Shown here: positions 40,437-62,512 of the stretch, one piece after another | Numbering within the stretch: the stretch's first letter is position 1 | How the letters are laid out: the number at the start of each line of letters is the position of its first letter | DNA from: Burkholderiales bacterium | GTDB taxonomy: Bacteria; Pseudomonadota; Gammaproteobacteria; Burkholderiales; JAEUOS01 | DNA: 64,000 nucleotides | Reading direction: 5' to 3' | Assembly: GCA_965279115.1 (NCBI GenBank) | Contig: OZ257137.1 | Span: forward strand, 2,806,587-2,870,586 | The notes under the pieces: generated by a model | Seen by the model: the letters and a program-made list of their open reading frames with translations, nothing else | Databases searched by the model: none | Told to the model about the DNA's origin: nothing | Position numbers and translations under genes: made by a program

Positions 40437-41210
40437 CTATTCCCAGAGCACGTTCGGCAGCGGCAGGCCCGCCAGGTCTGCCGCGCTCAGGCGGCCATCC
40501 GGTTCGATTCCAAAGCGCTCGAGCACCGCCACCAGCTGGCGGGCATGCTGCGCGCAATGCCAGGTTGATCGTTCGAACAGCATGTGAATCGGATGCACGC
40601 CGAAAAACGTGTTCAGCGGCTGCTGGCAAGTGCGGTCGGCAAGTTCGTCCCACCAGCGTTCCAACCTGGCCATCACGTCATTGCCATAGGCGGCGATCTG
40701 TTCGCGGGTGAAGATGGTGCCGTCCGCGGTCTCGGCATTGGCCTTCTCGGCGGTGTATTCGGCGCCATCGGCCGCGCTTTCGAGAAACGCCTCGGCGATG
40801 CGAAACACATGGTGGCCGATCATGCGGATGGTGCGGTCGCGGTTGTCGATCACGCGCTCATCCAGACGTTCCGCCGGCATCTGGCGGATATAGCGATGCA
40901 CGGCGCGCAGCACAAGCAGCCACCGGGTGATCAGCTCATCGGGCGGCAGGCGGGCATGGCCGGTGCCTTGCAGGCCGACGAACTTCGCGACATCCTCGAG
41001 GTTTTGCGCGAAGACGAACTTGCTGCCATGCGCAACCACCGGGACGCTGCGCGCACCGAGCGCGAACAGCTTCTCCCTTCCGCCAGCGTCGTTCAGGACG
41101 TCAATGGCGACGAAGTCGATGCTCTTTTGCGAAAGAAACTCTTTCGTCCGGAGGCAGCTGCTTCACCCGGGCTGGGTGTAGAGGATGTACTTTTCGGCAA
41201 CGGCGGCCAT
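40437..41210 (-). CDS. glutaredoxin-like / DinB-like fusion protein with an in-frame TGA at the first position of a CxxC-type motif (candidate selenoprotein, or else a nonsense pseudogene)
   Basis: Hand translation from ATG 41210 gives MAAVAEKYILYTQPG-TGA-SSCLRTKEFLSQKSIDFVAIDVLNDAGGREKLFALGARSVPV. This runs in frame into the ORF-track 200-aa DinB-like ORF that starts at 41039. The TGA lies at 41165-41163. Confidence 0.55.
41130..41146 (-). promoter_or_regulatory. SECIS-like hairpin 16 nt downstream of the in-frame UGA
   Basis: On the mRNA strand, CGAAAGA-GUU-UCUUUCG forms a perfect 7-bp stem with a G-first apical loop. The loop begins 23 nt after the UGA. Confidence 0.4.
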
Positions 41211-41312
41211 GGCGAAATCCGTGTGAGGGGAGTCGGCAGGCTACGTTGTTGATCGATAGGCGTCAAGCATGCGCGAACAGGCGGCCAACGGGCGGGTAGT
41301 ATCGCGCAAACG

Positions 41313-41337
41313 AAAAAGGCCCAGCCGAAGCTGAGCC
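41313..41337 (-). terminator. rho-independent terminator at the left island junction
   Basis: Minus-strand RNA GGCUCAGC-UUCG-GCUGGGCC followed by UUUUU. Its position fits the original terminator of tRNA-Phe, displaced by the insertion. Confidence 0.6.
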
Positions 41338-41347
41338 TTTGAATGTT

Positions 41348-41367
41348 TGGTCTGGGGCTCTCTCGAA
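41348..41367 (-). repeat. degenerate copy of the tRNA-Phe 3' end (putative att remnant)
   Basis: The minus-strand TTCGAGAGAGCCCCAGACCA compares with the tRNA TTCGATTCCGCCCCAGGCCA. The GCCCCAG(A/G)CCA core has one mismatch, and 16 of 25 positions match over the wider alignment. Confidence 0.35.
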
Positions 41368-41420
41368 TGATGTCCGAAGACCGTTGCGGCCCAACAGACC
41401 TAGAAAAGCGAAAAAGCCGG

Positions 41421-41441
41421 TTACCCCCAGTATTACCCCCG
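41421..41441 (+). repeat. paired TTACCCCC motifs, 12-bp spacing (left island end)
   Basis: TTACCCCCagtaTTACCCCC. The same paired arrangement occurs at 62119-62139. Confidence 0.6.
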
Positions 41442-41446
41442 CCGCC

Positions 41447-41626
41447 CTAGTTGTTGCTCAAACTGAGTCCGAGAAATCTCGCAAGCTCCTCGACGTTCAC
41501 CTTGGTTTCGGCCATAGACAGATTTAGCATCTTCACAATCTCCTCGTTTCCCCGTTCCTTCTGGTCATCGGTGAGCGTTGCGGTTTCAGCTTCAAGTAAA
41601 CCTTCAGCAGTTCGAATGAGAGCCAT
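41447..41626 (-). CDS. 59-aa hypothetical protein (possible HTH) at the island's left edge
   Basis: Below the ORF-track cutoff and translated by hand: MALIRTAEGLLEAETATLTDDQKERGNEEIVKMLNLSMAETKVNVEELARFLGLSLSNN. The segment VNVEELARFLGLS resembles an HTH turn. Confidence 0.3.
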   Translation of the reverse strand: MALIRTAEGLLEAETATLTDDQKERGNEEIVKMLNLSMAETKVNVEELARFLGLSLSNN

Positions 41627-41705
41627 TTTCGTGATCCTTTCGAGTCAACAATTTGCGGGCAATCACTCGCATTTTCAAGCGAGAACTCGCAATTCCAAGC
41701 CAGAC

Positions 41706-44363
41706 TCACCGTAGGGCAGCGCACCGCTCAATCTCGGCTTTTACCCCAACCATATATTTGACAGCAGTTTGCCACAAGAACGAAAGAAGAGTGTCTTGCG
41801 CCGATTGGTCGGATGGCGCCGCGCCGCTCACCGGCTTTTCGGGGATCAAGCTCAAAAGCTTGCTGTCTTTGGCCGTGGACGCGATAGTGAGAACGCCGAT
41901 CGTTTCCTCGGGCGAAATTTCTTCTCCGGGCTCAATGTCTCGCAGCGGCAACGGGATGGCGATCAAAACAGCGAATCTTTCGTCTACTGCCGGTTTTCTA
42001 TCTCCATAGTAAACATAGCCGCCGTCATGCTCTGGCCCCCACAACTCCCTCAGGGCGAACATCTGCAACTTGCGCTTCTTGAATGCTGTCCCGGCAACGC
42101 CTTCGCCCAATGGAATACTTTCCACTCGCCCTGAAAGGGATGCGTTGTCGCCAGCCTCCAACACGAGTTCCAGCCTATTCGTACGTTGATCGTACGTGAA
42201 CACTGCCACCGCTATTTTCTCGTCTTGAGAATATTGCGATTTGATCTTGGGTTTCAGCAACAGCTTGTAGATATCATCGAGCTTGCCCTTGGCGAGTTCA
42301 CGTAGTTTCTCGATCTCGGAAGACGGACTCTTGTCCCTGAATTGCAAAAGCGACTTACGCAGTTCGAGCGTCGCGCCTTTGTCTCTGATCGTGACTTCGT
42401 CGGCCGCCGTATTGACACGCCATCGGATCAAATATGCATAGCCAACAAGCGGCTCGGTGATTTCCAGCGCCCATCCATTGAACTCGGTGTGGGGATCTCG
42501 TTTCGTTCCCTGTTTCCGCCCAAGAGGACTCAGCCGGGATGACTCAAAATGGCCAATGTCCTCGTCGACCGTGTACCCACTGGCGCCAATTACAACCTCG
42601 CCGGCTGCGTCATCCACTTCCAGGTTCGGATAGCCATTTGACCGCTCGCAGAGAACGTGCGCCTCCGGCTGATGAAACGTTGTCGGAAGCCAAACCTTTA
42701 ATACGAGGCGCTTTGCCGGATGTCGGACTGCAACGCCCATATAGTCGAAGCCATTCAAGTTTGGATCCGCCTCCGTTTCCCACCTCGAGGTGGCAAATGT
42801 ATTGATAGTGCGAAATACGGCACCGTAATGATTGACCACCCTGCCGCTCAGATCACGGCCAAAATTGACATCGAGCTTCAGTTCCTTCGTAGGTTCATCA
42901 CTTTCAGGGGGGGCGATATAGTGCCCCGCAATGCTTGAGATGTCGTCGACTGCGGCGCCGGAAGGATTGATGGCACCGAGCTGAACAGACAATCTAAGTG
43001 ACCCTTTCCCCGACGAATTTCCCCCTAAGACTCTGTAGCCATCTACCCAGAGGTGAAAGTCCGCTGCCCCTGATTCGTAAACGTGCACCTCCCGGCCAAT
43101 GCAATCGCAGAAAGAATTCAGCAGTGCTACAGCTTTCTCGTAACTCCGATGCTTTACGGATTCAATAGGCAGGATTTCACGAATCTCCGAGGCCATCGTA
43201 CTCAATGCAGTTTGCCCCCGGCCATAACTGACGACCTGATGATTCATGAGACCGCTCGGGTGAATATCCACCAAGTTGAATGCATTGCGTCCGGCCTCGT
43301 CATGGCGAACCGTCGGGGAGCCGGCTGCGATTACTGCGAGTTCGCCGGCCGGACGGCTGGGTACCGAGTAGGAGAGCCTGCTGAAAGCCGAATAGTGCTT
43401 GTGCCCGTGAAGCACTAAGTCAAAGTGGTGCTTGCCCAGTTCATGCAGCAGTGTTCCGGCGTTCCGCAATACAAGGAAAGCTTCAATCGATGTCAGAGAT
43501 TCCTTCGTGGTGGAATGAGGTATCGGAAGGGGGTGGTGGTGAACCAGCGCGATTCTTGGGGCTAGACAAATCGTTACCCTGGTGTTGCGCAAACTCATCA
43601 GAGCCATGTCTAGCTTGTGGATATCGTTCTCGTCGACTTTGCCGGTGGCTAGGACCAAGCGGCAGTTTGAATTGAATGCGGCAAATAGAACAGCGTCGCC
43701 GCCTTCCTTTACTCCTCGCGGTCCTTGCGCATCGCTACTCTTCCGAACCTGAATTGGCAATATTTGTATGACATCAAGGGGTGTCTCTTGCTGCGGGCCG
43801 GCATTCAAGAGCCCAATCAGACGCATAGCGAAAAACTGGGCACACCAGCGCCAATAGGAAAGCCATCTCGACTTACTGCGCGAATGATATTCAGTAAACG
43901 TGGGGAGTTGGTCGAAAACACCCGCGTGCTTTTGCCTAAATACGACCCTTACGTAGCGGCTCCAAGGCCAAAACACAAGGTTTCCCATCACTGCGACGTC
44001 GTGGTTTCCGGGCACGTAGTAGATTTTGCAGTTCAGCCGATTGGCCAAGGCTTGGAGTTCGCGGCGAGCAAGGCCCAGTTCGAATAGCCATGGCGAATCC
44101 ACGATATCCCCCGTCACGACAACCGCGTCCGGACGATGCCTTTCGGTCAGCATGGCACTGACGTATCTCCAAAGCTCCGGATCGAATTGCGAGCCAAAAT
44201 GAATATCGGAAAGGTGCGCGATCCGATAGAAACCATTGCGATTTCTGCGCTGCGATGTATCGCCGTCAGCCCTTTCTGACGAACTCTCCGCAGTGCCGCT
44301 TTCGCCTCTTGGGTCGGGGCTATTGGCTTCCGAACCCACTCCATTCTGATGTTCCGTCGGCAT
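41706..44363 (-). CDS. large metallophosphoesterase (class III PDE-like motifs) with an unknown middle region and a C-terminal GAF-like domain
   Basis: All calcineurin-like motifs are present in order: LSDIHFG, TGDIVD, PGNHDV, LVHHHP, LHGHKH. The C-terminus carries a GAF-like block (IPLGEGVAGTAFKKRKLQMF...VLIAIPL...IGVLTIAS). Start taken at ATG 44363; the ORF track extends to 44492. Confidence 0.8.
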   Translation of the reverse strand: MPTEHQNGVGSEANSPDPRGESGTAESSSERADGDTSQRRNRNGFYRIAHLSDIHFGSQFDPELWRYVSAMLTERHRPDAVVVTGDIVDSPWLFELGLARRELQALANRLNCKIYYVPGNHDVAVMGNLVFWPWSRYVRVVFRQKHAGVFDQLPTFTEYHSRSKSRWLSYWRWCAQFFAMRLIGLLNAGPQQETPLDVIQILPIQVRKSSDAQGPRGVKEGGDAVLFAAFNSNCRLVLATGKVDENDIHKLDMALMSLRNTRVTICLAPRIALVHHHPLPIPHSTTKESLTSIEAFLVLRNAGTLLHELGKHHFDLVLHGHKHYSAFSRLSYSVPSRPAGELAVIAAGSPTVRHDEAGRNAFNLVDIHPSGLMNHQVVSYGRGQTALSTMASEIREILPIESVKHRSYEKAVALLNSFCDCIGREVHVYESGAADFHLWVDGYRVLGGNSSGKGSLRLSVQLGAINPSGAAVDDISSIAGHYIAPPESDEPTKELKLDVNFGRDLSGRVVNHYGAVFRTINTFATSRWETEADPNLNGFDYMGVAVRHPAKRLVLKVWLPTTFHQPEAHVLCERSNGYPNLEVDDAAGEVVIGASGYTVDEDIGHFESSRLSPLGRKQGTKRDPHTEFNGWALEITEPLVGYAYLIRWRVNTAADEVTIRDKGATLELRKSLLQFRDKSPSSEIEKLRELAKGKLDDIYKLLLKPKIKSQYSQDEKIAVAVFTYDQRTNRLELVLEAGDNASLSGRVESIPLGEGVAGTAFKKRKLQMFALRELWGPEHDGGYVYYGDRKPAVDERFAVLIAIPLPLRDIEPGEEISPEETIGVLTIASTAKDSKLLSLIPEKPVSGAAPSDQSAQDTLLSFLWQTAVKYMVGVKAEIERCAALR

Positions 44364-44881
44364 TCTTTTCTCGACTGTCTGCAGCGAGCCGTGGGAGCGA
44401 AAGCTCAACGCTTCATCGAACTCGATCGCATTGTTGAATTTCAACAAATGATGCGGGAGCGGCCGGAAAAACACAATCCGTAGAGGTGTCAAATTCCAAT
44501 GGAATGCGTGAATACAACGTGCGCTGCCGAAAAGTGAAGCCTACTGGGCCGACGATTCATGCTCAGTCGATCTATTGCCACCAGCGAACGTGCGACTCTC
44601 AACATACGGCGCGTCGCACCGGTCAATTTGGAAGCGCTGCCCGTGCCAATCGTCACCGATCGCCCTGGCCTCCTAGAAATGGAATTGAAATTCCTTCTAG
44701 AGGGTGCTTCAGACTCTGCTACCCGCAATCAGGTGTGCTCATTGCCTACAGGAAGCACCGTCTGGTAACTGCCAACCACATGAATCCGAGGCCTTTTCCG
44801 ATTGATAATCGCCATTTAATTATTTTATTTCGTCACTTTATGTTTATAATTCGTCAATTAATAGACATCGGTTTTTTGGCC

Positions 44882-46066
44882 ATGCAAGACATAGTCATAC
44901 AATCTAGTGACGAAACGCATATTTTGGAGGAAGATTTCGTCAATTTGTCACGTTTGGCTGCGAGCGAAGCGTTTGATGATGTCCGCATGCTGCTGGCGAA
45001 GCTTGTCCGCAAGTACAGGATCACCCGGCCGGAGTTTGCTCAACGACTTAACACTAGTCTTCGGGCTGCAAATGCGCGCTCGGGAGGTTCGGGATTATTG
45101 CGTCGCCATACGCCCGAGATGTCAAAAAGTTCCGATATGCCTGTCGACGCTGACTCACGAATGTCACTCATCCGCGTATTCGACGATCGAGCTGGACTGC
45201 AGCCCCCGCTCCTGCCCGAGGGTTTGTTCGACCAGATCCACGACATCGCACGAGAACGCAAGCAGCGAGCGCGCCTCGCAAAGCGTGGCGTCACACCGAG
45301 TCGGTCCGCCATTCTCGTCGGGCCGCCTGGGGTCGGCAAGACATTGTCTGCACGCTGGATCGCGCATCTAATCGGCAAGCCACTGTGGATACTGGATTTG
45401 ACGACGGTCATGAGCAGTCTTCTTGGCAAGACAGGCAATAACCTGCGAGCAGTGTTCGACCATGCGCGTCAGAATGAGGCAGTGCTGCTTTTGGATGAAA
45501 TCGACGCGATCGCAAAGCGTCGCAGCGACGAATCCGACGTCGGTGAGTTGAAGCGGTTGGTTACGGCAATCTTGCAGGAGGTGGATGCTTGGCCCGATTC
45601 GGGATTGCTACTGGCAGCAACTAATCATCCGGAACTGGTAGACCCGGCGCTGTGGCGTCGATTCGATGTAATTTTGTCCTTTCCCGCAACGGATGCCAGT
45701 TTGCTCGAGCAGGCCGTCGAACGTTTTCTGGGTCTGGATCTAAGTACGTTTCAGGCACACGTTCAATTGCTGGCCCTTTCGCTTCAGGGCATGTCTTTGT
45801 CGGACGTCGAACGCGCCGTTACGGCTCTCCGGCGAACGGTGGCCTTGAAGCGAAGTGACCCTACCACCGCTGTACTAGCTATGGCCAAGCAACATGTCAG
45901 TCACCTCGACAAACCTGCAAAGAGGAGATTGGCAATAGCAATGGCGGGCTCTGAAACATTTCCACACACGAAGATCATGGAGCTCACTGGCGTCTCGCGA
46001 GACACGATCCGCAAGTACGCCGGCCCCTCTCCAATAAAGGGACGTCCAGAAAAGAAGGAAGCCTAA
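44882..46066 (+). CDS. ietA: AAA+ ATPase, IetA-like
   Basis: Walker A GPPGVGKT, Walker B LLLDEID, sensor-1 AATN, and an RRFD arginine. The gene lies directly upstream of an S8 protease gene (1-nt gap). Start at ATG 44882 after an AT-rich promoter region. Confidence 0.75.
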   Translation: MQDIVIQSSDETHILEEDFVNLSRLAASEAFDDVRMLLAKLVRKYRITRPEFAQRLNTSLRAANARSGGSGLLRRHTPEMSKSSDMPVDADSRMSLIRVFDDRAGLQPPLLPEGLFDQIHDIARERKQRARLAKRGVTPSRSAILVGPPGVGKTLSARWIAHLIGKPLWILDLTTVMSSLLGKTGNNLRAVFDHARQNEAVLLLDEIDAIAKRRSDESDVGELKRLVTAILQEVDAWPDSGLLLAATNHPELVDPALWRRFDVILSFPATDASLLEQAVERFLGLDLSTFQAHVQLLALSLQGMSLSDVERAVTALRRTVALKRSDPTTAVLAMAKQHVSHLDKPAKRRLAIAMAGSETFPHTKIMELTGVSRDTIRKYAGPSPIKGRPEKKEA

Positions 46067-48314: not shown

Positions 48315-48653
48315 ATGATCAAACCAGTGAAGCTTACCAATGGCCGTGCCTGGCGTAAGTCCGGCGACGCGCTGGCCCATTTCAAGGCGATGCTGGGGCG
48401 GTACAACGTTGGGCAGAAAATCACCGATCCAAACGATCACGCTGATCTTGTCGCTCTCGTCTCGGTTTATGACTCCGACTTAGCACCAGGCCACGGCACG
48501 AAAGCAGGCCTAGGCATCGAATATTTCTTCAAGGATCATTGCGGTGATGCGGGATACTCGACAGATTGCTTCCATATCCATAGAATCGACGACTCAACAG
48601 TTGACTTCAGCTACATCCACGCGGTGAGGAGCGCCGGCAAGCTGACGCCCTGA
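48315..48653 (+). CDS. small DUF3223-like protein downstream of ietS
   Basis: 112 aa. MIKPVKLTNGRAWRKSGDALAHFKAML...CFHIHRIDDSTVDFSYIHAV resembles the DUF3223 pattern from memory; not verified. Confidence 0.45.
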   Translation: MIKPVKLTNGRAWRKSGDALAHFKAMLGRYNVGQKITDPNDHADLVALVSVYDSDLAPGHGTKAGLGIEYFFKDHCGDAGYSTDCFHIHRIDDSTVDFSYIHAVRSAGKLTP

Positions 48654-48691: not shown

Positions 48692-49300
48692 TCAGCTTGC
48701 AAGTCTCCCTTTTGACGTCCAAAAGGCCAAGTCACGGTCCCCCTTGTCATGGGCGGAGTTCGGGCCGGATTGACGCGCCAGCAGCCCCTCATAAATCTGC
48801 GCTCCAACACTGGAAAGCGCGATAAACTGCGCTACCCGCAGCCCTGGGTAGAGGACGATTGGCACTGTTCCCACATTCACCAGTTCAAGGGTGATCGCCC
48901 CGACGAATCCCGGGTGCACAGCAACTGCTGTTGCCACGACAAGTCCGGATCGCCCCCAAGAAGAGCGAGATGTGACATACCCAGAAATATCCACTGGCAA
49001 GCGAAACCATTCCATGGTCGCTGCAAGGACAAGTTCGTTTGGATGTAGGACGAATTTCTCACCGCGGTCGACATAGTGGTGATGTTCGTATTTTTCCTTC
49101 AGCCTATTTGGCGCTTTGGCCGGATCGATGGAATCCAGGTTTCCGCGACGGGTCGTGATGAACTCATACCCCAGGCGGACGTCAATGGACCCCGGGCCGA
49201 CTTGCTCTTCCAGATCGAAGATCGGCGTGATAATAAGTCGGGACTCGAGCGTTTCCCGGGTCATCGCCTCGATTAATTTGTCGTGGCCAAGCACACTCAT
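48692..49300 (-). CDS. dCTP deaminase / dUTPase-fold protein (short Dcd-like)
   Basis: By eye it aligns with E. coli Dcd blocks: SIDVRLG, LHPNELVLAATME, SRSSWGRSGL, HPGFVGAITLELVN. The catalytic Ser, Arg and Glu positions are retained. ATGA overlap with the upstream gene. Confidence 0.8.
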   Translation of the reverse strand: MSVLGHDKLIEAMTRETLESRLIITPIFDLEEQVGPGSIDVRLGYEFITTRRGNLDSIDPAKAPNRLKEKYEHHHYVDRGEKFVLHPNELVLAATMEWFRLPVDISGYVTSRSSWGRSGLVVATAVAVHPGFVGAITLELVNVGTVPIVLYPGLRVAQFIALSSVGAQIYEGLLARQSGPNSAHDKGDRDLAFWTSKGRLAS

Positions 49301-50700
49301 CGATTCGGCTTCTCTTCATCGTACAACTGCTTCATTAGGATGGATTCGACACCGCGGAGTGTGATCGTGTTCAAAAGCTCCCGTTGCTTCGCCGTGAGCG
49401 GCTCCGACACGCCCCCAACCGCCTTCTGGCCGTGAATTGCCCAGCACCAACCTGCCAAAATGGCTGACGCCCAAGTGGGGGATTTTTTCGTGGCGCCGAC
49501 ACCGATCTCGTCCGGCGGAATATCGAACGAAATTCTCTCGACAAGCTCTGGTACTTCGCTTTGGAGGGAATCGCGCGAGTAAGTAAGAGCCTGCACATTC
49601 TGTTTCGCAAGCTTCTTCGCATGCTCAATCGTGATGCCCATGAGATCGTATGCCTTCTGCATCCCGAGATGCTTGCGCTCACGCATTGCCACCTCGTCGG
49701 CGTCGTTCTTTGCCAATGTTTGCAAGAAGTCGATGAAAGCGGCCACAGATGGATAGCAATCTAGTTTGCCGCCTGATGCAGGAGGTGAACTACGAAGCGC
49801 GTCCACAAATCCTTCTTCCTCAAGAGTTTTGAGAGCGAAGCGCAAACGATGGCGAGCAGCCGGATAGAAGCCGGGCTCGCTCGGTAGTTTGTCGAGATCT
49901 CTGTGAGAAGTGACCCAATAAAAGGCGAAGAGCGCGCTCGGTCCAAAAAGTAGCAATCCGACATAGTCGGATATCAGTTCCTCCATGCCCCGCAGCCAAC
50001 AGCTGCGGATATGGTGAAATTCCTTAGCAGCCTCGACAGTCTTGACGGCAGGTGACTGTGCGGTGGACTTTGCCCGCAGATCGTCGCGAATGCCGTTCAT
50101 GGGGTCCTTTATCAGGGCAAGCATAGTCGGGTCGGCGATACATCGTGCCGCGACCAGATGTCCCACTTCGTGCCCGAAAACTGCGTGGGCGAGGATATTG
50201 TCCCTTTCCATGCGTGGAAAAGTTATTACGAACAAAGGGTCTGAAAAGAACTTGAAAAAGTCTTTTTCAGATCCTGTTTCCTCCGCCAAGATGAAGAGAT
50301 CTTTGACTGGGTCAAGGATCAGTGGCGCTAGATTCGTTATCCGATAGTTGTATTCTGCGGCTGGTGCAGCGATCAAGCGGCACTTCGAACCTGTAATATC
50401 GTGTGCGACCAGAAGTTTTTCGAGAATCCACACTAGGCCGCGCGGCGTCTGCTCGGTGTGAGCGTTGTCGAAATGAACGAGGAGCTTTTGCCATTCGATC
50501 GCGGCACGAATAAACAGCTTGGTCTGGTCGAGGTCGGCTGTACTCAGCTTTACTTCGACCCGGTCCAACATCAGGCGAAGGTGCGAAAGGGCATCAATCG
50601 TCGCCGCTGAAGGATAGTCCCTGCATTCCAATTCGCGGAAGCGTTCTTTGAGACTGCTAAGTAAGCCTCGTGCTCGTCGTTGAAGGAAATCTAAGTCCAT
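49297..50700 (-). CDS. putative zinc metallopeptidase (HExxH) of unrecognised family
   Basis: HAVFGHEVGH motif with a downstream MEELISDYVG segment. The rest of the 467 aa is unrecognised. Confidence 0.6.
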   Translation of the reverse strand: MDLDFLQRRARGLLSSLKERFRELECRDYPSAATIDALSHLRLMLDRVEVKLSTADLDQTKLFIRAAIEWQKLLVHFDNAHTEQTPRGLVWILEKLLVAHDITGSKCRLIAAPAAEYNYRITNLAPLILDPVKDLFILAEETGSEKDFFKFFSDPLFVITFPRMERDNILAHAVFGHEVGHLVAARCIADPTMLALIKDPMNGIRDDLRAKSTAQSPAVKTVEAAKEFHHIRSCWLRGMEELISDYVGLLLFGPSALFAFYWVTSHRDLDKLPSEPGFYPAARHRLRFALKTLEEEGFVDALRSSPPASGGKLDCYPSVAAFIDFLQTLAKNDADEVAMRERKHLGMQKAYDLMGITIEHAKKLAKQNVQALTYSRDSLQSEVPELVERISFDIPPDEIGVGATKKSPTWASAILAGWCWAIHGQKAVGGVSEPLTAKQRELLNTITLRGVESILMKQLYDEEKPNR

Positions 50701-51641: not shown

Positions 51642-53021
51642 CTAATTGCGAGGTAGGCAGAAGCCGCAGTTTGGTGCCGTGCTATTCTCAAAAACGACTT
51701 GCCGGTCGACCGGGGATCGCAGGTCCATGTCCAATAGCGCGATGCGGCGCCCGCCGTGAAGGCCACGAACTATCTCGGCAATGACCAGACATGCCGCTAT
51801 CATGCCCACAAACGGAGCACCCACCGTCCGCTCGGCCAGCAAGACCAGTCCGCACTGGTCAAGGCCAGCGGCGCTGAGGGCTTGGTAAGCCTCGCGTTCC
51901 AACGGCAACACGCCGCGCACGGCCGGCTTGCCCCAAATTTTCCGAGCTGCCCGAGGCCCCGGGAACGTGTTCAAGCGCATGGTCTGGAACTCCGCAGGCC
52001 CTGCCCCGAGGCCGGCGTCGATGACCCACGTGAAACCCACTTCTTCCAGTGCCGAACGGGCCATCGCGTTGTCGACGCCGCACAAAGCCAGCGAGGGTTC
52101 GTCTTCACGTACCCTGAAATGCGAGTCGAACTTCCGTTCCACCAGACGCGTCTGAAATCCCAATCCCTCGGCCCAAGCCGCCATCGCCCGGGTTTTGGGA
52201 CGGTCGCGGAGAGCTGCCGTGGTCAGCACTGACGTGCTTTCATTGGCCAGGTTCAGCCGATCGAAGTCCTGGAGTACCAGAGTCAGATCTTCCGGGTTGC
52301 GATACGGCAACATCGAAAGCACCCATAGGTAGGCCTGACCAAGGTGGCCCAGACCAATCAGCCAGAGCGAGTTAGGCAAGAGTTCCAGCTTCGGCGCCTG
52401 CGCATCGGCTTTGATCCAGTTCTCGGCCGTCCCGGGTGACCAGAGAGACATTCCGACTGCTCGCCGCGCCGCCGGCGCGAACCCGCCGCGCAAGTGCAAG
52501 AACACCTCGGACACCGCGATGGCGCCTGCCAGCACACCCGCAATCGTCAACGTATTCTTGCCGGTCGGCAGCGTGGCTTGGTCGGCAGGCAGTACGCCAC
52601 CACGCCAGCCATCGAATACGCAACGCAGTGCGACTGCCGAACGGTCGTCAATCAGGGTGTCACCGATGATGATCAATGGTATGACAGTAGGCGGCGTTTC
52701 ACCCAGACGTCCGCCGAGGGCAAGCACAGCTTCGCGCAGCGTGTTTGCATTATCGGAGGGGACCAGAAGCGGTGCGTCAGGTACGCTGCTCACGAACACG
52801 CCTCCGAGAAGGGCACGTCGGCCAATCGCAATCACCGTTAACAGGGCCGCCTGACCCGCAGGCGTTTCTGCGGCTTCCTCACCGATGACCAGTTCCGTCG
52901 AATACCCAAAAAGCTTCCTTTCGGCCTCTTCAATGGTCGCCGCGTCGCCGGCGTCGACAAGGATCTTGACGATACGATTGAGTTCGTCGGGGGTAGGTAT
53001 CTGCTTCGTCATGATGCTCAT
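51642..53021 (-). CDS. bilD: E1-like (ThiF/MoeB-fold) activating enzyme, BilD-like
   Basis: Rossmann motif LIGLGHLGQAY and the adenylation-domain block CGVDNAMARSAL. Its ATG overlaps the JAB gene stop (ATGA). Confidence 0.7.
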   Translation of the reverse strand: MSIMTKQIPTPDELNRIVKILVDAGDAATIEEAERKLFGYSTELVIGEEAAETPAGQAALLTVIAIGRRALLGGVFVSSVPDAPLLVPSDNANTLREAVLALGGRLGETPPTVIPLIIIGDTLIDDRSAVALRCVFDGWRGGVLPADQATLPTGKNTLTIAGVLAGAIAVSEVFLHLRGGFAPAARRAVGMSLWSPGTAENWIKADAQAPKLELLPNSLWLIGLGHLGQAYLWVLSMLPYRNPEDLTLVLQDFDRLNLANESTSVLTTAALRDRPKTRAMAAWAEGLGFQTRLVERKFDSHFRVREDEPSLALCGVDNAMARSALEEVGFTWVIDAGLGAGPAEFQTMRLNTFPGPRAARKIWGKPAVRGVLPLEREAYQALSAAGLDQCGLVLLAERTVGAPFVGMIAACLVIAEIVRGLHGGRRIALLDMDLRSPVDRQVVFENSTAPNCGFCLPRN

Positions 53022-53536
53022 CCCAGAAATCCAATGTAGAAGAATTGTCGGGCCGCGCCAGAATGATCTTTCCACCTATAACCGCCCCGGTACTCGAAGA
53101 TGCACAGGGTGTCAGCCGACAGGCTGCCTCGGCCCATATTCGACGCGATCAAGGCGAGGTGGCCAGCACGTGCCACCATGGGGTTGGTTCGGTCGGCGTC
53201 GCTTTGAAATGCACGGCCGACATGGGTGTGAATGTCAGCCACTACCGTCAGCGCCTCCTCTCTGCAGGTCTGCCAGAGCTTTCCGAACGAATCGCCCGTT
53301 AGGACGCAAACGCCGCTTTTGTAAGCGTTCGGGTCGAGGTCGTCGTAGTACAGTGCCTTGACGATCTCGCGCACACCGTCAGTGTCGCGTCCCAGCAGGA
53401 ACGCTCCACTTTCGTGGAAGCCTTCGCTTCGACGGGTCAGCTCTCGCCGGATAACTGACCACATGCCCGACCTGACTGTCAGGCGATGATCAGGGGCAAC
53501 GAACGCCCGTATAGTCTTGCGAATTGAGAAGTTCAT
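53018..53536 (-). CDS. bilC: JAB/JAMM metalloprotease, BilC-like
   Basis: HESGAFLLG (Glu) and DIHTHVGRAFQSDAD (an HxH-x6-SxxD JAMM-like motif). A strong GAGGTG SD lies 4 nt before ATG 53536, which sits inside the 3' end of the E2-like gene. Confidence 0.8.
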   Translation of the reverse strand: MNFSIRKTIRAFVAPDHRLTVRSGMWSVIRRELTRRSEGFHESGAFLLGRDTDGVREIVKALYYDDLDPNAYKSGVCVLTGDSFGKLWQTCREEALTVVADIHTHVGRAFQSDADRTNPMVARAGHLALIASNMGRGSLSADTLCIFEYRGGYRWKDHSGAARQFFYIGFLG

Positions 53537-53975
53537 ATATCACCTCGAGGTAGCTGACGATGCCGGTCTGCTCCGACCAGCACATCGTTGGGTATTGGGA
53601 CAACCAAAGGGGGTGACCTTCCAGACTCACGCGATCGCACGGCAGATACAGGGCTTCGCCATTCTTCCAATCGGTCCTGAACGCACCGGGTACCCGCGAA
53701 CGCCCGTTCGGCCACCGGTCAAAAGGCAGCGGCTGCTTCGCGGCAACATCCCAGGGGCGCCCCGTTGCAGGCGTACGCCGGTAACCAGTGCATTCAAACC
53801 TGAAGCTGTATTCGCTCGGCATCCCAGCGCGTTTCGCCGCGGACACCGTGATGATCAGGTAGGGCCATTCGAGGCTCACCATCCTCCACCGGCCCGTGCA
53901 GGCGCCGAGGAGAAAGGCGGAACGTTCGAGGTCCTCAACCAGGCTTTTGTAATCCGGCCGGACGGTGACCTCCAC
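53490..53975 (-). CDS. bilB: E2-like (UBC-fold candidate) protein, BilB-like
   Basis: Called from its position between the Ubl and JAB genes and its 161-aa size. Candidate catalytic Cys in LYLPCDR or FECTGY. The GTG start lies 3 nt after the Ubl stop. The fold was not verified. Confidence 0.5.
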   Translation of the reverse strand: MEVTVRPDYKSLVEDLERSAFLLGACTGRWRMVSLEWPYLIITVSAAKRAGMPSEYSFRFECTGYRRTPATGRPWDVAAKQPLPFDRWPNGRSRVPGAFRTDWKNGEALYLPCDRVSLEGHPLWLSQYPTMCWSEQTGIVSYLEVIYELLNSQDYTGVRCP

Positions 53976-53978
53976 AAT

Positions 53979-54473
53979 CTAGCCCTCGACGCGCTGGATC
54001 GGCACAAGGTCGAAGCAGATGTCGCAGTGGCCCAGTTCTGTTAACGCGCCGATCTGCAGGTCCGGTGCCGGGCGTTCCGTCGTGTTGCAAATTTGCAGCG
54101 CGTGGTCTGCCTTGTCGGGTCCGTGGACGTCGAACTGCCTCAAGGCCCAGTGCAGTACGTGTTTAACTGTCACAGACGGGCGGAACACGTGCTTGTGCGT
54201 CTTGTCCGTGAAGTGAACCGTTACCTCAATTTCCTTGCAGCGGTGCACGTGCACGCGCGAGTGGCGCTTAACCAGTGCGTCCTTGAGCGAGGCCGACATC
54301 GGGAAGGGGATCTCGACCTCGTCGACGAAGATCAGCCCGCCGTCCGCAGGTACCTGCAGGCCTTTTTCCGCCGCGGCGCGCACTAGATCCCGGAGTAGCG
54401 CCGTTTCCGCCACAGAGATGATCTCGATTCGCGAATCACCTGCGGTCTGCACAAACACTTCAATCACATTCAT
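53979..54473 (-). CDS. bilA: ubiquitin-like protein with probable tandem beta-grasp halves and a C-terminal Gly, BilA-like
   Basis: 164 aa, ending in ...LVPIQRVEG followed by the stop. The two halves each open with an IEV-x-V strand (NVIEVFVQT and KEIEVTVHF). AGGAA RBS before ATG 54473. Confidence 0.6.
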   Translation of the reverse strand: MNVIEVFVQTAGDSRIEIISVAETALLRDLVRAAAEKGLQVPADGGLIFVDEVEIPFPMSASLKDALVKRHSRVHVHRCKEIEVTVHFTDKTHKHVFRPSVTVKHVLHWALRQFDVHGPDKADHALQICNTTERPAPDLQIGALTELGHCDICFDLVPIQRVEG

Positions 54474-54497
54474 ATCAGTTTCCTTTCGGAGGTTTGG

Positions 54498-54515
54498 GGC
54501 GGCAAGATTGCCGCC
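54498..54515. promoter_or_regulatory. perfect 8-bp palindrome between the HTH-like gene and the Ubl gene
   Basis: GGCGGCAA-ga-TTGCCGCC lies 25 bp upstream of the Ubl start and has no U-tract. It could be an operator or an RNA hairpin. Confidence 0.3.
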
Positions 54516-54556
54516 TTTCACACTCAAATCTCAGGAAACCGATAAAACGTGCAACT

Positions 54557-55153
54557 CTATTTCATCCAGGACTCCAGGTCTTCGCGCGCCAGGCCGCATT
54601 CCGCCCATGCTTCTTCGAACCTTTTGCTTCGTTCTTCGCCCGACGGTGGAAGGACGCTTCGAATGAAAGACGGCGACGGTGAAGAAAGGCCGCCGCGCGC
54701 CAGCCATCCGACCAACCAATCGATCGAGGCCTTGATGTGTTCCGACAGCGCAGCGATAAAGCGGTCCGGAATGGACGATAGTTGTACCGTCTTGCTATCA
54801 AGCATTTCAAGCAGTTCCACACTGCAATCAAGCTTTCCTGCAACTTCGAAGATATCAATGCCGGAGGCTTGCGCGGTAGAAATAATGCCGGGCGGCATTA
54901 CCCTGCTTCGAAATTTGTGAAGCCGATTGGCCAGATCGCTGCCTGCACGCGTGTGCGCTAAACCCTCGTTCACGGAGCCAGGCCCGCTCGTCGAGCGAAG
55001 CTGGTACAGCCATTCACCAACGAACGTGGTGATGTCGTCGGTGAACTCGGGATACCGTGCGCACCAGACTTTTGCTGTCCGACAGTCGGGGACATCGACC
55101 GATGACTGCATTGCTTGCAGAACATCGTCCAAATTGGGGCGGCTGGAATTCAT
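54557..55153 (-). CDS. hypothetical protein with a possible HTH segment (candidate partner/anti-sigma of the upstream gene)
   Basis: 198 aa. ATGA overlap with the sigma-like gene. The segment ISTAQASGIDIFEVAGKLDCSVELLEMLDSK looks XRE-HTH-like. This is a weak call. Confidence 0.4.
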   Translation of the reverse strand: MNSSRPNLDDVLQAMQSSVDVPDCRTAKVWCARYPEFTDDITTFVGEWLYQLRSTSGPGSVNEGLAHTRAGSDLANRLHKFRSRVMPPGIISTAQASGIDIFEVAGKLDCSVELLEMLDSKTVQLSSIPDRFIAALSEHIKASIDWLVGWLARGGLSSPSPSFIRSVLPPSGEERSKRFEEAWAECGLAREDLESWMK

Positions 55154-55887
55154 GTTCTTTCTCCGATTTCAGCTTTGAGGGCCGCGAAAATTTTCTCGAA
55201 CCAGTAGTGCACAGTCCGCTTATTGCGATGGACTAGCTTTTCGATGGAAATAACGTCGGGGTCGCTAGACTCGATCGGGTACCCGTCGCTATACCAATAT
55301 TCGAATGCCACTCGTTGCTCGTCTTTGAGCGTGGGCAAAACCTTCTGCAGAGCCATGCGCAAATTCTCGCTCAGCTCCATTGCGCGCTTCATTTCCAACA
55401 TGGCCTGGGCGTTGCTAATCGGCACCTCGTCGAGGTCTTCGCCCACAACCACTTCTTTGGCGCGTAGCTTCCTTAGGCGCGCTGCCGCTGTCAACGCGCG
55501 GCGCGAGACGAAGTGACCGAAGGAGATCTCACAATAGCGGAGCCTGCTTAGGTCAGCGTGGATCAGGTCTTCATTGATCGCGTGGAGTGTCCGGTCGACT
55601 ACTTCCTGGGCGTCGATTTCAGCCAGCCCCATGCACTTGCTGTTGGCAATTTTGATTGCGCGGGGATAGATTTGCTGGTCGACAAGCTGCTGAAAGAGGT
55701 CGTCATATCCCCAGGCTAAAAGGCGCCTCGCGAGAGTACACAGCGTCTCCTTTTTCCATTGGTGCGCCTGGTCAACCCAATCGTCCACAGGTACGTCGCC
55801 GGCAGCCGACAGCTCAACGACCACCTCCGGGCGTCGAACAAAGCCGGTCGTGCCGGAGGACGCGTTCGCTAGCGGTGAGGTGTCCAT
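55150..55887 (-). CDS. sigma-70/ECF-like protein (region 2-like and region 4 HTH-like segments)
   Basis: AEIDAQEVVDRTLHAINEDL is region-2-like. LPTLKDEQRVAFEYWY...IEKLVHRNKRTVHYWFEKIFAALK is region-4-like. The similarity was judged by eye only. Confidence 0.45.
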   Translation of the reverse strand: MDTSPLANASSGTTGFVRRPEVVVELSAAGDVPVDDWVDQAHQWKKETLCTLARRLLAWGYDDLFQQLVDQQIYPRAIKIANSKCMGLAEIDAQEVVDRTLHAINEDLIHADLSRLRYCEISFGHFVSRRALTAAARLRKLRAKEVVVGEDLDEVPISNAQAMLEMKRAMELSENLRMALQKVLPTLKDEQRVAFEYWYSDGYPIESSDPDVISIEKLVHRNKRTVHYWFEKIFAALKAEIGERT

Positions 55888-56292: not shown

Positions 56293-56392
56293 GCTTGCTA
56301 CTGTCGCTACCGCTGCTACCGATCAGAATTCAGGGGAAGGGGTAGGGGCAGCGACGATAGCAACAGTAGCAACAGTAGCAACAGTAGCAGCC
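56293..56392. repeat. iteron-like 9-bp periodic repeats in inverted arrangement (candidate replication origin or long hairpin)
   Basis: The left arm has three NNNNGCTAC units (56293-56319). The right arm has RTAGCAACA three times plus GTAGCAGCC (56357-56392). They flank AGAATTCAGGGGAAGGGGTAGGGG, and the array starts 32 bp past the primase stop. Confidence 0.75.
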
Positions 56393-56423: not shown

Positions 56424-58943
56424 TCAGTCGGCGTTCCCCAGGAGCGCAGTATTGATGACTACATACCGTCTGCGCCCGTCTTCTTCCAGTCGGGCCCGGT
56501 TACGTTCGGCGAGAATGGACAGCGCCGCCTGGAAGTCCCGGCTGCTGCGCACGCAATTCGGCCCATACTGATAGATGCGCTTGGTCGGTACACGATCCAC
56601 GCCGTTGGCGCGCGCTTCCTGACGCAGCCAGGCATCGAACCGGATCGCAGCAGCCATAGAGGGTGGCGTATCCAATTCAGCAAGCAGGCGCCGCGCTTCG
56701 CCTAAGTGCCACCCAACTATATGGACGGCCGCATCAATATCCCCAACCCCGATCGTTCCAGCAGGCCCATGCGCCAGCACATGAAACAGCGCTGCCAGGC
56801 GCGCAGCATTCTCCGCCGCCTTCGCGGCCACATCGCGAACAGCGCGGAATTCCCCATGTGCACCGAGTTCACGCTCAATCCCATCGTGAAACTGGATCCA
56901 CTCCGCACGTGCCTGCGGCGCGAGATCGAGGATGGGCGGATCAAGGCCGCCGCAGGCGTCGGCCGCGAGTGCCTGCCCGAGCAGGTCGCCGATGCGCGCC
57001 GCATACAACGTCACGCTCGGCATGGTCGCGGGCGCCGGCCGATACGGCCGCTGTCCTTGCGTGCTGTCTGGCCAGGCCATGAGGAAGCGCGCGATAAACC
57101 CGGTCCCTCGTGGCAGCGGTCCGGCCCGTTCCAGGAACCCCCGTAACGCCTCCGGCTGCGCCATCAACCCGAACGTGAGGCGCCGGCCGCGCAGCAAGAA
57201 CGAGGGCCGGGATCGCCGATCGATCGCCATCTCTCCGCCGTCCCACAGGACATTGAGCAGCGCCAGATTGCGCAGAATCGTGTCCTGCCCCATGCCATGC
57301 GCGCCGAACACCGCACCGGCTTCCGCGGACAGCACGCCGCCGCTCGGCCAACCGTTGGCCAGCGCATGCGCCAGTGCTTCTGGCGTCGCATCGGCGTAGA
57401 TCAGGCGCGGCACGACAAGCGGCGCAAGCGCCTGGCGGACCAGGTCCTCCAGTTCACTCTCTTGGACCGTCGTGTCCTGCGCGCGGCGCCGCCGCTGCTT
57501 GATGGCTTCGAGAAGGCCTGCTTTTTTCGCCTCGTATGCCGCGATTGCCGCTTCGCGCTGGGCGATCGCCGGCGCCATGCCCAGGATCCGACCGGTTTCC
57601 CAATCCCGCAACGCCTGGCCAAAGATCGCGTCACAGGTGGTCTTGCGTTCCCCGGAATCGGCCACTGCCATCAGATACAGGGAAATCGGACCCACCAACT
57701 GGTGATCCCGGCGCACGTTGGCCAACCCCTGCGCCGCCAGCGATAGTGCCGCCAGGGCCGAGCACGCGACAAGTGCCATGGGGGCCTGTACAAAGCCCTG
57801 GGCTTCGGTCACCGCGTCGCGCAACATCGTGGGCAGGGCGTCGACCGGGTAAGGCTGCGCGTCCATCGGTTCGGTCAAGGGTTCGGGCTCTGGCCATTCC
57901 GGAAATCGCGTCCCGCTGGCCTGTGGAGGCCTTGTGTCGAAATTGCCGCCGGCTACCGGCTCCACGGCTGCGGTAGAGAGCGTATTTCGAACGGCGATCA
58001 AACCCTGGAGCTGATGCAGGTCGTTGAAGTCCGTCGCGCCGTCCGGGCGATCGGCACCAAATGCCGGAACCGCGAGTCGCGCATCCACCGCACGCGCAGC
58101 GGCGCGGGCGTGCGTGAGGCCTGGATTGCCAGGCGTGGCCGCATCGTCATCGGCGCAGATGATGAGCTGCGCCCGGGGATGTTTATCCCGGATGACCCCG
58201 GCGACCGCGCCAAGATTGCCGGCATGGAAGGCCACGGCCACCGGATGCCCTGTGGCCAGGTGAATGCTCGCGCCGGTCGCATAGCCTTCGGCGACGCAGA
58301 TGACCCCCGCCGTGGTATTGCCGACATCTCCGATTCCGCAAAACAGGCCGGCGACACGTCCGCCCTTCAGGAATCGCTTGGTGCCGCCTCCCGTGATGAA
58401 CTGCAAGCTGTGCAACACGCCGGCCGCGTCGCGTAGCGGTACGACCAGGGCCCCCTTGTAGACGCGTATCCCGAACGCGCCGACACCTTTGCGCACCAGG
58501 TAGGGGTGGTGGTGGTCTGCCGGCTGTGCCGTCTCCCAGAGACGCGTAGCGCGAGCCTGCGCGGCACGGTGACGTACTGCATTTGCTGCCTCGCGCCGAT
58601 CGAGGTCGACGCGGGTTCGCGTGGCAATCGTCGCATGTTCCCCTGGCGACAATTCTCGTCCCGAGTCGAAGCGCCAGGATTCCCAGCCGCGGCCATCACG
58701 CCAGTTCTCCAGACCGCCCGCCGGTAACCCATCCATGTGCAGGACGTAGGCGGCATCGCCGCGACCGTGCTTGCCGGCCGCGTCGCAGCGATGCAGGCAA
58801 CCGTCTGCGAGTATCGGTTCCGGTGGGACGATGTCGCGGGCGACGAGGGCAGCGCGAAACTGATCCACGACCGACGCCAAACTGGGGGCGGTTCTCGGGG
58901 CGTGGCTTGGGCGAGGAGAAGAGGATTTCTGATCGCCAGCCAT
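56424..58943 (-). CDS. Toprim-domain primase-like protein with a DUF3987-like C-terminal half (island replication protein)
   Basis: Toprim Glu in VICVAEGYATG and DxD in IICADDD. The C-terminal DSGERKTT block is typical of DUF3987 proteins. The gene starts 6 nt after the alpA stop. Confidence 0.8.
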   Translation of the reverse strand: MAGDQKSSSPRPSHAPRTAPSLASVVDQFRAALVARDIVPPEPILADGCLHRCDAAGKHGRGDAAYVLHMDGLPAGGLENWRDGRGWESWRFDSGRELSPGEHATIATRTRVDLDRREAANAVRHRAAQARATRLWETAQPADHHHPYLVRKGVGAFGIRVYKGALVVPLRDAAGVLHSLQFITGGGTKRFLKGGRVAGLFCGIGDVGNTTAGVICVAEGYATGASIHLATGHPVAVAFHAGNLGAVAGVIRDKHPRAQLIICADDDAATPGNPGLTHARAAARAVDARLAVPAFGADRPDGATDFNDLHQLQGLIAVRNTLSTAAVEPVAGGNFDTRPPQASGTRFPEWPEPEPLTEPMDAQPYPVDALPTMLRDAVTEAQGFVQAPMALVACSALAALSLAAQGLANVRRDHQLVGPISLYLMAVADSGERKTTCDAIFGQALRDWETGRILGMAPAIAQREAAIAAYEAKKAGLLEAIKQRRRRAQDTTVQESELEDLVRQALAPLVVPRLIYADATPEALAHALANGWPSGGVLSAEAGAVFGAHGMGQDTILRNLALLNVLWDGGEMAIDRRSRPSFLLRGRRLTFGLMAQPEALRGFLERAGPLPRGTGFIARFLMAWPDSTQGQRPYRPAPATMPSVTLYAARIGDLLGQALAADACGGLDPPILDLAPQARAEWIQFHDGIERELGAHGEFRAVRDVAAKAAENAARLAALFHVLAHGPAGTIGVGDIDAAVHIVGWHLGEARRLLAELDTPPSMAAAIRFDAWLRQEARANGVDRVPTKRIYQYGPNCVRSSRDFQAALSILAERNRARLEEDGRRRYVVINTALLGNAD

Positions 58944-62182: not shown

Positions 62183-62216
62183 GAAAAAAGCCGCGCTCAG
62201 AGGAGAAACGCGGCTT
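62183..62216 (-). terminator. rho-independent terminator downstream of tRNA-Phe
   Basis: Minus-strand AAGCCGCG-N13-CGCGGCUU followed by a U run (six T after CGCGGC). Confidence 0.55.
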
Positions 62217-62251
62217 TATCGGACTGCTTTGGAATTCTTTGGAGGGGTAAC

Positions 62252-62327
62252 TGGTGGCCTGGGGCGGAATCGAACCACCGACACAAGGATTTTCAATCCT
62301 CTGCTCTACCGACTGAGCTACCAGGCC
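62252..62327 (-). tRNA. tRNA-Phe (GAA anticodon), CCA encoded
   Basis: Hand-folded cloverleaf: GGCCTGG acceptor stem, GCTC/GAGC D stem, GAGGA-TTGAAAA-TCCTC anticodon arm with GAA, a TTCGATT T-loop, and a CCAGGCC-ACCA 3' end. Confidence 0.9.
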
Positions 62328-62512
62328 GTTGCGCAAATCCGCTGAAGGGAAACAACGCAAGCCCTAAATTATAGCGTGAAATCCGGCTTTCTGGCGAACC
62401 GCCCGAAGCTCTTTTCCGCGCCGTCGCGCGACCGGCGCACCAATGAAAAAGGCCGGCGATGCGCCGGCCTTCAGGAAGTACCACCGGGCCATTGCGGGCC
62501 CGGCCCGCGACG

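Follow-up and report, generated by a model that had tools for sequence, protein, structure and literature searches.

We analysed a 64,000-nucleotide stretch of the genome of a Burkholderiales bacterium (contig OZ257137.1 of assembly GCA_965279115.1, positions 2,806,587 to 2,870,586 of the forward strand; hereafter the window) and describe here a locus on its minus strand that encodes an 885-amino-acid (aa) protein, P0001 (41706..44363), followed by a conserved 59-aa protein (41447..41626). P0001 combines a calcineurin-like metallophosphoesterase domain with a predicted β-sandwich module and a GAF-fold domain. We consider the evidence about evenly balanced as to whether this locus is a two-gene anti-phage module of the abortive-infection type, in which the phosphoesterase would act as the effector, the β-sandwich and GAF domains as its sensor and the small protein as a regulator. 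An earlier note, made from the letters of this DNA, had proposed a sensor-effector of an undescribed one-gene defence system; the sensor-effector outline is supported by homology to defence phosphoesterases, by recurrence of the sensor module and by genomic contexts, whereas the locus comprises two genes and its effector class is already known.

A phosphoesterase domain with invariant metal-binding motifs

The 885-aa reading frame noted earlier was confirmed: it runs on the minus strand from an ATG at 44363 to a stop at 41706, remains open upstream to a TTG at 44492 (928 aa), and in its 885-aa form is the version present in a public protein collection. About 55 full-length relatives share 24-39% identity with the window protein and are scattered across phyla; few occur in reference genomes, where a locus scan returned predominantly generic phosphoesterase motifs and only three full-length-like relatives. 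An AlphaFold2 model of P0001, built on an alignment of 56 full-length members, reached a predicted local distance difference test (pLDDT) of 85.2 and a predicted template modelling score (pTM) of 0.86. Ahead of the enzyme domain, aa 1-45 are disordered, and pLDDT stays under 50 over residues 1-41.

The enzyme domain itself (aa 46-395; 43179..44228, minus strand), which carries a helical insertion at about aa 130-225, is a member of the calcineurin-like metallophosphoesterase superfamily, as Pfam, motif, NCBIfam and Foldseek comparisons agree. Pfam Metallophos (PF00149) matches aa 47-324 at E 5e-14 (53.5 bits against a cut-off of 21.5), and at E<=0.1 the Pfam scan of P0001 found no other family, neither PUA nor P-loop NTPase among them. 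The motif set that had been read as complete is indeed complete, comprising D53-x-H55, G85-D86-x-x-D89, G119-N-H-D122, H275-277 and G320-H-K-H323, and all five metal-binding motifs are invariant across the 56 aligned members; given that overall identity is so low, this invariance indicates an enzyme under selection to remain active. The terminal GHKH had moreover been taken as a signature of class III cyclic-nucleotide phosphodiesterases (PDEs). The GHxH motif is common to the whole calcineurin-like superfamily, and the CpdA model (NF008359) gives P0001 13.8 bits (E 0.031) without reaching its cut-off of 225.

Comparison with solved structures placed Rv0805, GpdQ, Lmo2642, SMPDL3B and acid sphingomyelinase (ASMase) at the head of the Foldseek matches to the catalytic domain (E 1e-11 to 1e-6), with Rv0805 and GpdQ at E ~1e-10 to 1e-11 and TMt 0.57-0.76. 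Mre11, SbcD and LpxH fell below these small-molecule phosphodiesterases, and a profile search of the PDB returned the same ranking (E ~1e-8). This ranking bears on the alternative that the locus has the same defence architecture with an Mre11/SbcD-like nuclease, acting on DNA or RNA, in place of a small-molecule enzyme. SbcD and Mre11 are significant matches in both sequence and fold, and PADLOC contributes a weak match to its 'Effector endonuclease' model; yet the nucleases are outscored by Rv0805, GpdQ, SMPDL3B and the anti-phage phosphoesterase model DS9_1, the SbcD/Mre11 match spans only the first 80-100 residues, and neither a capping nor a DNA-binding domain of the Mre11 type was found. 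We therefore regard a nuclease as unlikely.

The C-terminal half combines a predicted β-sandwich with a GAF fold

The middle of the protein (aa 400-655; 42399..43166, minus strand) matches no Pfam family. In a second model, built from P0001 residues 397-885 alone (pLDDT 87.8, pTM 0.85), this region was matched by Foldseek to Ribophorin I/Ost1, to the putative protease 3kd4 and to the N-domains of M1 aminopeptidases and LTA4H (E 1e-7 to 5e-4), and the predicted structure thus assigns the middle ~255 residues to the β-sandwich class of Ribophorin I and M1-peptidase N-domains. Conserved residues of the module include W528-E529, P549 and 'P638-x-x-G641-x-x-Y644-x-x-x-W648'. Two long linker helices (aa 659-707; 42243..42389, minus strand), assigned by DSSP on both models, lead from the β-sandwich into the GAF-fold domain (aa 708-850; 41814..42242, minus strand), and a long C-terminal helix (aa 851-885; 41709..41813, minus strand; DSSP H851-884), which may take part in dimerisation, ends the protein.

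The GAF assignment draws on three sources, namely Foldseek, weak Pfam GAF_2 matches and a PDB sequence profile. Foldseek matched the domain to the isolated GAF domain of PtsP (3ci6; E 3.7e-5, prob 1.0, TMt 0.58); the matches of the C-terminal part also included several PAS-GAF-PHY modules of phytochromes. Pfam GAF_2 was detected in 5 of the 56 relatives (best E 0.0064, under the gathering score) and is the only Pfam family that recurs in members apart from the Metallophos pair, while the sensor profile matched, among PDB sequences, GAF proteins only (1ykd at E 0.018, and 3ksf), over the conserved 'IP-G-G-aG' motif. The domain also carries the conserved motifs 'IPLGEGVxGAAFK' and 'IGVxT(A/G)SxAxDSGLL'. 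The C-terminal GAF domain suggested by the earlier note is thus upheld by the modelled fold and by sequence signals that are weak but consistent, although no Pfam GAF family matches P0001 itself at E<=0.1.

A GAF fold need not imply the sensing of a cyclic nucleoside monophosphate (cNMP). The NKFDE signature of cNMP binding (N-K...F-x3-D-E) is present in 0 of the 56 members, in which the equivalent strand reads IGVxT(A/G)S(T/D/N)AxDSGLL, and the GAF domain of CapP and IrrE helps to bind single-stranded DNA and a partner protein (PMC13228613). Given the missing signature and this precedent, the GAF fold points to a sensor or interaction domain, not to a cyclic nucleotide, and cyclic-nucleotide sensing, which had been considered by comparison with eukaryotic GAF-PDEs, is unsupported. 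Those enzymes (PDE2/5/6/10/11) likewise join a GAF fold and a phosphodiesterase-type enzyme in one chain; their catalytic fold, however, is of the HD-type class I and not calcineurin-like, and their domain order is opposite, so that the likeness is an analogy at most. CapP and IrrE, metallopeptidases of immunity and the DNA-damage response, resemble P0001 in that a hydrolase is followed by a C-terminal GAF domain in an immune setting, but their hydrolase is a Zn peptidase, a helix-turn-helix lies between the domains, and no sequence similarity to P0001 was detected.

The β-sandwich and GAF module recurs with other effector domains

A profile of residues 397-885, covering both domains, was searched against 1.84 billion representative proteins and returned 919 clusters at E<=1e-3, the weakest of which may be GAF-only, 502 at E<=1e-10 and 144 at E<=1e-30. 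Most of the strong matches have the phosphoesterase architecture, and many carry N-terminal regions of other lengths. When the N-terminal domains of 45 module-bearing proteins were scanned with Pfam, about 10 proved to be FAD/NAD(P)-Rossmann oxidoreductase-like (e.g. P0186, P0204, P0216), 7 carried CHAT (among them P0190, P0200 and P0213, the last with an additional C-terminal HAD domain), 6 Metallophos and 3 a trypsin-like domain (e.g. P0205); TIR together with PNP was found in P0172, and HD-CE (PF24391) and EAD1 in one protein each. Judged from these domain assignments, the partners of the module closely match the effector repertoire described for prokaryotic conflict systems, in which calcineurin-superfamily phosphoesterases, PNPases, TIR, CHAT and trypsin domains are interchangeable (PMC7159879). 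The strongest argument that P0001 is an immune sensor-effector is this pairing of one constant sensor with swappable toxic effectors, and it argues against either a housekeeping enzyme or a signal scavenger.

It is possible, if on balance somewhat doubtful, that the β-sandwich and GAF module and the small partner constitute a widespread sensor platform, undescribed to date, for a new anti-phage family, responding to a new infection cue and serving phosphoesterase, CHAT, trypsin-like, TIR+PNP, HD-CE and FAD-Rossmann effectors in turn. Such a platform would extend over the 144 clusters of the most stringent threshold and perhaps up to ~900 at E<=1e-3, and its cue might be, for example, a phosphorylated small molecule that is cleared by HAD phosphatases in some variants. 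A HAD phosphatase accompanies the module twice, fused in the CHAT version P0213 (aa 753-938) and adjacent in the TIR+PNP version (L101, 3350-3994, minus strand); by analogy with MisB, the HAD phosphatase of the Metis system, this hints at a phosphorylated small-molecule trigger, which we treat as a lead and not a result.

The FAD/NAD(P)-Rossmann region, at ~440-480 aa, is the commonest alternative N-terminus on the module and would be an unusual effector candidate; at the one locus of this version that was examined (L103), no small open reading frame (ORF) is adjacent. Tiny ORFs of 32-57 aa lie 22-56 nt downstream of the CHAT, TIR+PNP and trypsin-like versions (L099 6222-6350, L101 3156-3329 and L102 2661-2759, respectively), and a small ORF thus follows the non-phosphoesterase versions in three of four loci, as positional evidence. 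The CHAT- and trypsin-linked peptides are alike in a W-x-K-x-TP-x-T pattern.

A conserved small partner completes a two-gene unit

P0001 had been described as a stand-alone product of a single gene. The locus is instead a two-gene unit, in which an ORF of 59 aa (41447..41626, minus strand) begins 80 nt downstream of the P0001 gene behind an AAGGA Shine-Dalgarno sequence; the gene calls of the source genome include it (P0231). The window shows no terminator-like site from the large gene to the small one, and a strong intrinsic-terminator-like hairpin with an 11-bp stem and a T-run (41315..41340, minus strand) closes the unit only after the small ORF. The arrangement is conserved: a small same-strand ORF stands -4 to +57 nt downstream in 14 further loci with 12 different large proteins. 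These partners belong to no Pfam family and have no consistent charge (pI 4.5-11), and they share an N-terminal motif, hydrophobic-x-(R/K/Q)-(T/K)-x-(D/E/G)-G-L-(L/F/Y), and many have a second in common, 'LA-x-(F/Y)-(L/M)'.

Partner conservation was assessed by a leave-one-group-out hidden Markov model (HMM) search of 18,814 ORFs drawn from 1.73 Mb of collected loci. When held out, the ORF of the window ranked 1st of the 18,814 (E 1.7e-6), and among the other held-out groups four ranked 1st (E 2e-5 to 1e-3), one ranked 2nd (E 0.22) and two were not recovered. A previous partner HMM from 7 sequences proved too noisy and was not used.

A tightly coupled, conserved two-gene unit with a small second gene, repeatedly located on mobile elements, is also what would be expected of a toxin-antitoxin-like addiction module, in which a large toxin and a small, labile antitoxin would mainly stabilise the mobile element instead of sensing phage. 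A conserved sensor of ~500 aa with a ligand-binding fold, shared with many effectors, nevertheless exceeds what a toxin-antitoxin pair needs, and toxin-antitoxin and defence roles are not mutually exclusive; an addiction function in place of defence consequently seems improbable.

Two further arrangements were considered and set aside. The Methylobacter homologue P0005 (L005, 10001-12793; 930 aa) has a ~60-aa C-terminal tail (MFLEEREDGLFAPEK...) and no separate small ORF behind it. A Rosetta-stone fusion of the partner to the large protein, recognised there by eye only, was not used, because the partner HMM misses the tail and no other member is fused. A conserved third gene upstream was likewise rejected, as the upstream genes of L088 and L004 (~460-490 aa) show no relationship with one another or with a 467-aa gene of the window. 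At L004 (6356-10004), four co-oriented genes (242, 490, 213 and 249 aa; no family match) overlap stop-to-start into the phosphoesterase gene, which suggests a larger operon in that lineage only.

On the other side of the P0001 gene, a ~520-bp divergent region shared with ietA contains an AT-rich stretch (44760..44900; GC 0.36), tentatively marked as a feature, and one promoter-like site on each strand. The divergent AT-rich promoter previously ascribed to the gene is accordingly matched in base composition, whereas the two promoter-like matches found do not exceed the 2.5 expected by shuffling.

Homologues examined lie mostly among defence genes and mobile elements

Defence genes or mobile elements surround the window gene and most of the homologues examined, which provides the context for reading the locus as a defence module. 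A Burkholderia homologue (L001) has as neighbours PDC-S06 (E 1e-285), a gene for a large helicase and one for a DrmC-like PLD protein; the Methylobacter homologue (L005) is cargo of a Tn7-like element (TnsABCDE) at glmS; and three others adjoin transposases and a caspase-HamB-like helicase (L087), adjoin insertion sequence genes (L088) or lie near QatC and RmrA (L089). The idea that homologues would cluster with defence or mobile genes holds at these five loci, and the two loci at which it does not (L090 and L004) are weighed below. Iet genes were near other homologues in 0 of 7 contexts, and the adjacency of ietAS in the window therefore reflects island packing and not a functional unit; a HAD gene was found in none of the eight phosphoesterase-family contexts. 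A degenerate DNA pattern of the sensor found 8 metagenome loci.

These contexts also bear on the alternative of a housekeeping or regulatory phosphodiesterase for cNMPs or cyclic dinucleotides, placed under GAF control and merely hitch-hiking on islands. Several homologues are labelled 'CpdA 3',5'-cyclic AMP phosphodiesterase' by their source annotation, class III PDE-type enzymes with the same metal motif set (Rv0805, CpdA, GpdQ) come closest among solved structures, GAF domains regulate PDEs and cyclases elsewhere, and the L090 homologue is flanked by housekeeping genes. Those enzymes, however, are single-domain housekeeping proteins of 250-330 aa, whereas P0001 has a ~95-aa insertion and ~490 extra residues. 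Furthermore, the low CpdA score and the absent NKFDE signature, the sporadic and deeply diverged distribution with few members in reference genomes, the fusion of the sensor module to proteases and TIR, and the defence-gene neighbours all speak against this explanation, to which we assign a low probability.

The family was absent from the 50,697 phage records searched, only generic phosphoesterases matched among viral structure models, and 72,556 plasmids yielded a single match, confined to the phosphoesterase. To our knowledge, the known scavengers of immune signals are small, unregulated proteins. A counter-immune enzyme of a mobile element, degrading cyclic-nucleotide immune signals, was the other function first put forward, and the phosphodiesterase-type fold, the location on a satellite-like element and the cleavage of cyclic GMP-AMP (cGAMP) in humans by SMPDL3A, a structural relative of the DS-8 domain (PMC13092281), would fit it; with no phage homologue it is very improbable, and scavenging makes no sense because the same sensor module is fused to CHAT, TIR and trypsin-like toxic domains.

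Relation to validated phosphoesterase systems and proposed mechanism

Both the effector class and its logic, in which a sensor is fused to a Calcineurin-CE enzyme and a second gene modulates it, are already known. DS-8 (metallophosphatase-NACHT) and DS-9 (metallophosphatase + HAD) have been validated in E. coli, where defence depends on their catalytic residues (PMC13092281). In Metis, m6dAMP from degraded host DNA binds the PUA sensor of MisA, which then cleaves NAD+ to nicotinamide mononucleotide (NMN) and AMP, and the HAD partner MisB clears the basal trigger nucleotide (10.1101/2025.11.05.686725). The PUA-Cal complex forms filaments and depletes deoxynucleoside triphosphates (dNTPs), converting dNDP to dNMP, NAD+ cleavage being a side activity seen in vitro (10.64898/2026.01.15.699771). 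From the shared two-gene composition of a phosphoesterase and a HAD phosphatase, we infer that DS-9, Metis and PUA-Cal-HAD are one system. The 'Calcineurin-CE' effector has been reported in many other predicted systems (10.1101/2025.11.05.686725; 10.64898/2026.01.15.699771).

Similarity to the NCBIfam models DS9_1, which is the top match of P0001 and of 10 of 10 relatives tested (E 1e-15 to 1e-20 in the relatives), and DS8 would place the catalytic domain of P0001 in the same broad clade as MisA/DS-9A and DS-8 ('Calcineurin-CE'), and on this sequence comparison P0001 is a homologue, not a member, of the validated effector clade, with a different sensor. Like Metis, PUA-Cal-HAD and DS-9, the locus fuses a sensor to an effector of this clade, has a second gene with a putative modulating role and travels as defence-island cargo; unlike in Metis and DS-9, an N-terminal enzyme precedes a C-terminal sensor, this sensor consists of a β-sandwich with GAF in place of PUA, and the partner is a 59-aa protein without a known fold in place of a HAD phosphatase. 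DS-8 shares the arrangement of an N-terminal metallophosphatase followed by a large sensor region in one chain, with homology over the first 75-85 residues, but P0001 has no NACHT or P-loop NTPase and is accompanied by a small partner gene. Nothing matching the sensor module with its small partner was found in Pfam, PADLOC v2, NCBIfam or the literature consulted, apart from Nicastro et al. 2023, who reportedly defined the Calcineurin-CE family and may list the architecture of P0001.

If the locus is a defence module, the large protein would rest in complex with the small partner, docked through the conserved N-terminal strand motif of the latter, and would probably be dimeric through the long helices flanking the GAF domain. 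The β-sandwich and GAF domains would serve as the sensor or regulatory module that keeps the phosphoesterase off until an infection cue arrives. This cue would most likely be a small phosphorylated or nucleotide-derived ligand, or a nucleic-acid or protein cue at the interface of the GAF domain and the β-sandwich, and not a canonical cNMP. The small protein could act as an inhibitor, a 'safety pin' or an adaptor, and the phage may perturb its variable tail. Once the cue is sensed or the partner is lost, the phosphoesterase would be released and, by analogy with the validated enzymes, would most likely hydrolyse the pyrophosphate or phosphodiester bonds of NAD+ (giving NMN plus AMP) and/or of (deoxy)nucleoside di- and triphosphates ((d)NDP/(d)NTP), such that depletion of essential nucleotides would starve phage replication and abort the infection.

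Several observations weigh against this mechanism. The best NCBIfam match of P0001, the DS9_1 anti-phage phosphoesterase (NF053862; E 5e-21), attains 75.1 bits and lies far under its cut-off of 420, as does DS8 (NF053861; E 2e-5) with 22.3 bits against 790; the 10 relatives tested likewise stay below the cut-off. PADLOC v2 gave no full-length system match for P0001 and only weak N-terminal matches (Effector endonuclease, E 0.0026; PDC-S60, E 0.0071). Transfer of function from MisA or DS-8 is thus an extrapolation across deep divergence, and the output of the reference enzymes is itself unsettled, because the MisA and PUA-Cal groups disagree on whether NAD+ or dNTP is the physiological substrate (10.1101/2025.11.05.686725; 10.64898/2026.01.15.699771). 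Moreover, neither ligand nor trigger can be read from the sequence of P0001, and the role given to the small protein is entirely inferred. Homology of the phosphoesterase-family partner to the tiny ORFs downstream of the CHAT, TIR-PNP and trypsin-like versions was rejected, the similarity not being significant. Lastly, 2 of the 8 contexts (L090 and L004) are uninformative or flanked by housekeeping genes.

The validation of calcineurin-type phosphoesterases as anti-phage effectors dates only from 2025-2026 and has so far been limited to enzymes with PUA or NACHT sensors; the present locus wires the same effector class to a candidate sensor absent from annotation libraries and adds a conserved mini-protein. 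Given that this sensor also occurs with protease, TIR/PNP and HD effectors, identification of its cue would account for how an entire group of systems is switched on. In addition, the family offers a second, independent test of the in-vivo depletion target, NAD+ or dNTPs.

The island and its other cargo

The unit lies at one end of a low-GC block that extends from ~41 kb to ~56 kb of the window (GC 0.51-0.58, ~0.54, against ~0.66 in the flanks). The block leads toward a Toprim-DUF3987 primase gene (56424-58943), a P4-type integrase gene (60864-62084) and the adjoining tRNA-Phe gene (62252-62327), and its Iet, Bil and HamC-like genes bear out the defence island on a satellite-like element that had been recognised at the outset. 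The large and small genes are the last cargo before host-GC DNA resumes. The boundary near 41300-41450 is placed by the GC shift and the terminator only; no match of at least 10 nt to the tRNA-Phe region (62200-62360), as expected for an att repeat, was found in 40500-42000. We conclude that a tRNA-Phe integrative island carries the unit as cargo at its far end.

The nearest neighbours are the genes of IetA and IetS (E 3e-74 and 5e-44). The mechanical ORF of ietA (44486-46066, plus strand) comprises 526 aa from a GTG and exceeds the IetA models, whose match begins at aa 182, by ~130-180 aa; the true start probably lies near 44885 (MQDIVIQ...), leaving the ~520-bp divergent intergenic region. 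Directly after ietS, a 112-aa DUF3223/HamC-like ORF (48315-48653, plus strand; PADLOC HamC E 3e-34) covers only the first ~108 of 245 HamC model positions, and neither HamA nor HamB is nearby.

The Bil (ubiquitin-like conjugation) system occupies 51642-55887 on the minus strand, with BilD at 51642-53075, BilC at 53018-53536 and BilA at 53979-54527 (E 8e-49 to 2e-168); a 161-aa ORF (53490-53975) stands where BilB is expected, and two genes co-oriented with Bil (198 and 245 aa; 54557-55887) matched no family. Three tandem 9-nt units (AGCGACGAT/AGCAACAGT) are present at 56350-56385, in the gap that separates the 3' end of the primase gene from the cargo genes. Finally, a 4-nt overlap joins a dCTP-deaminase-like gene (202 aa; PF22769 E 9e-35) to the upstream 467-aa gene, which has no Pfam or PADLOC match (48692-50700, minus strand), and this pair, situated between the IetS/HamC-like and Bil genes, may be an undescribed defence pair built on a dCTP deaminase.

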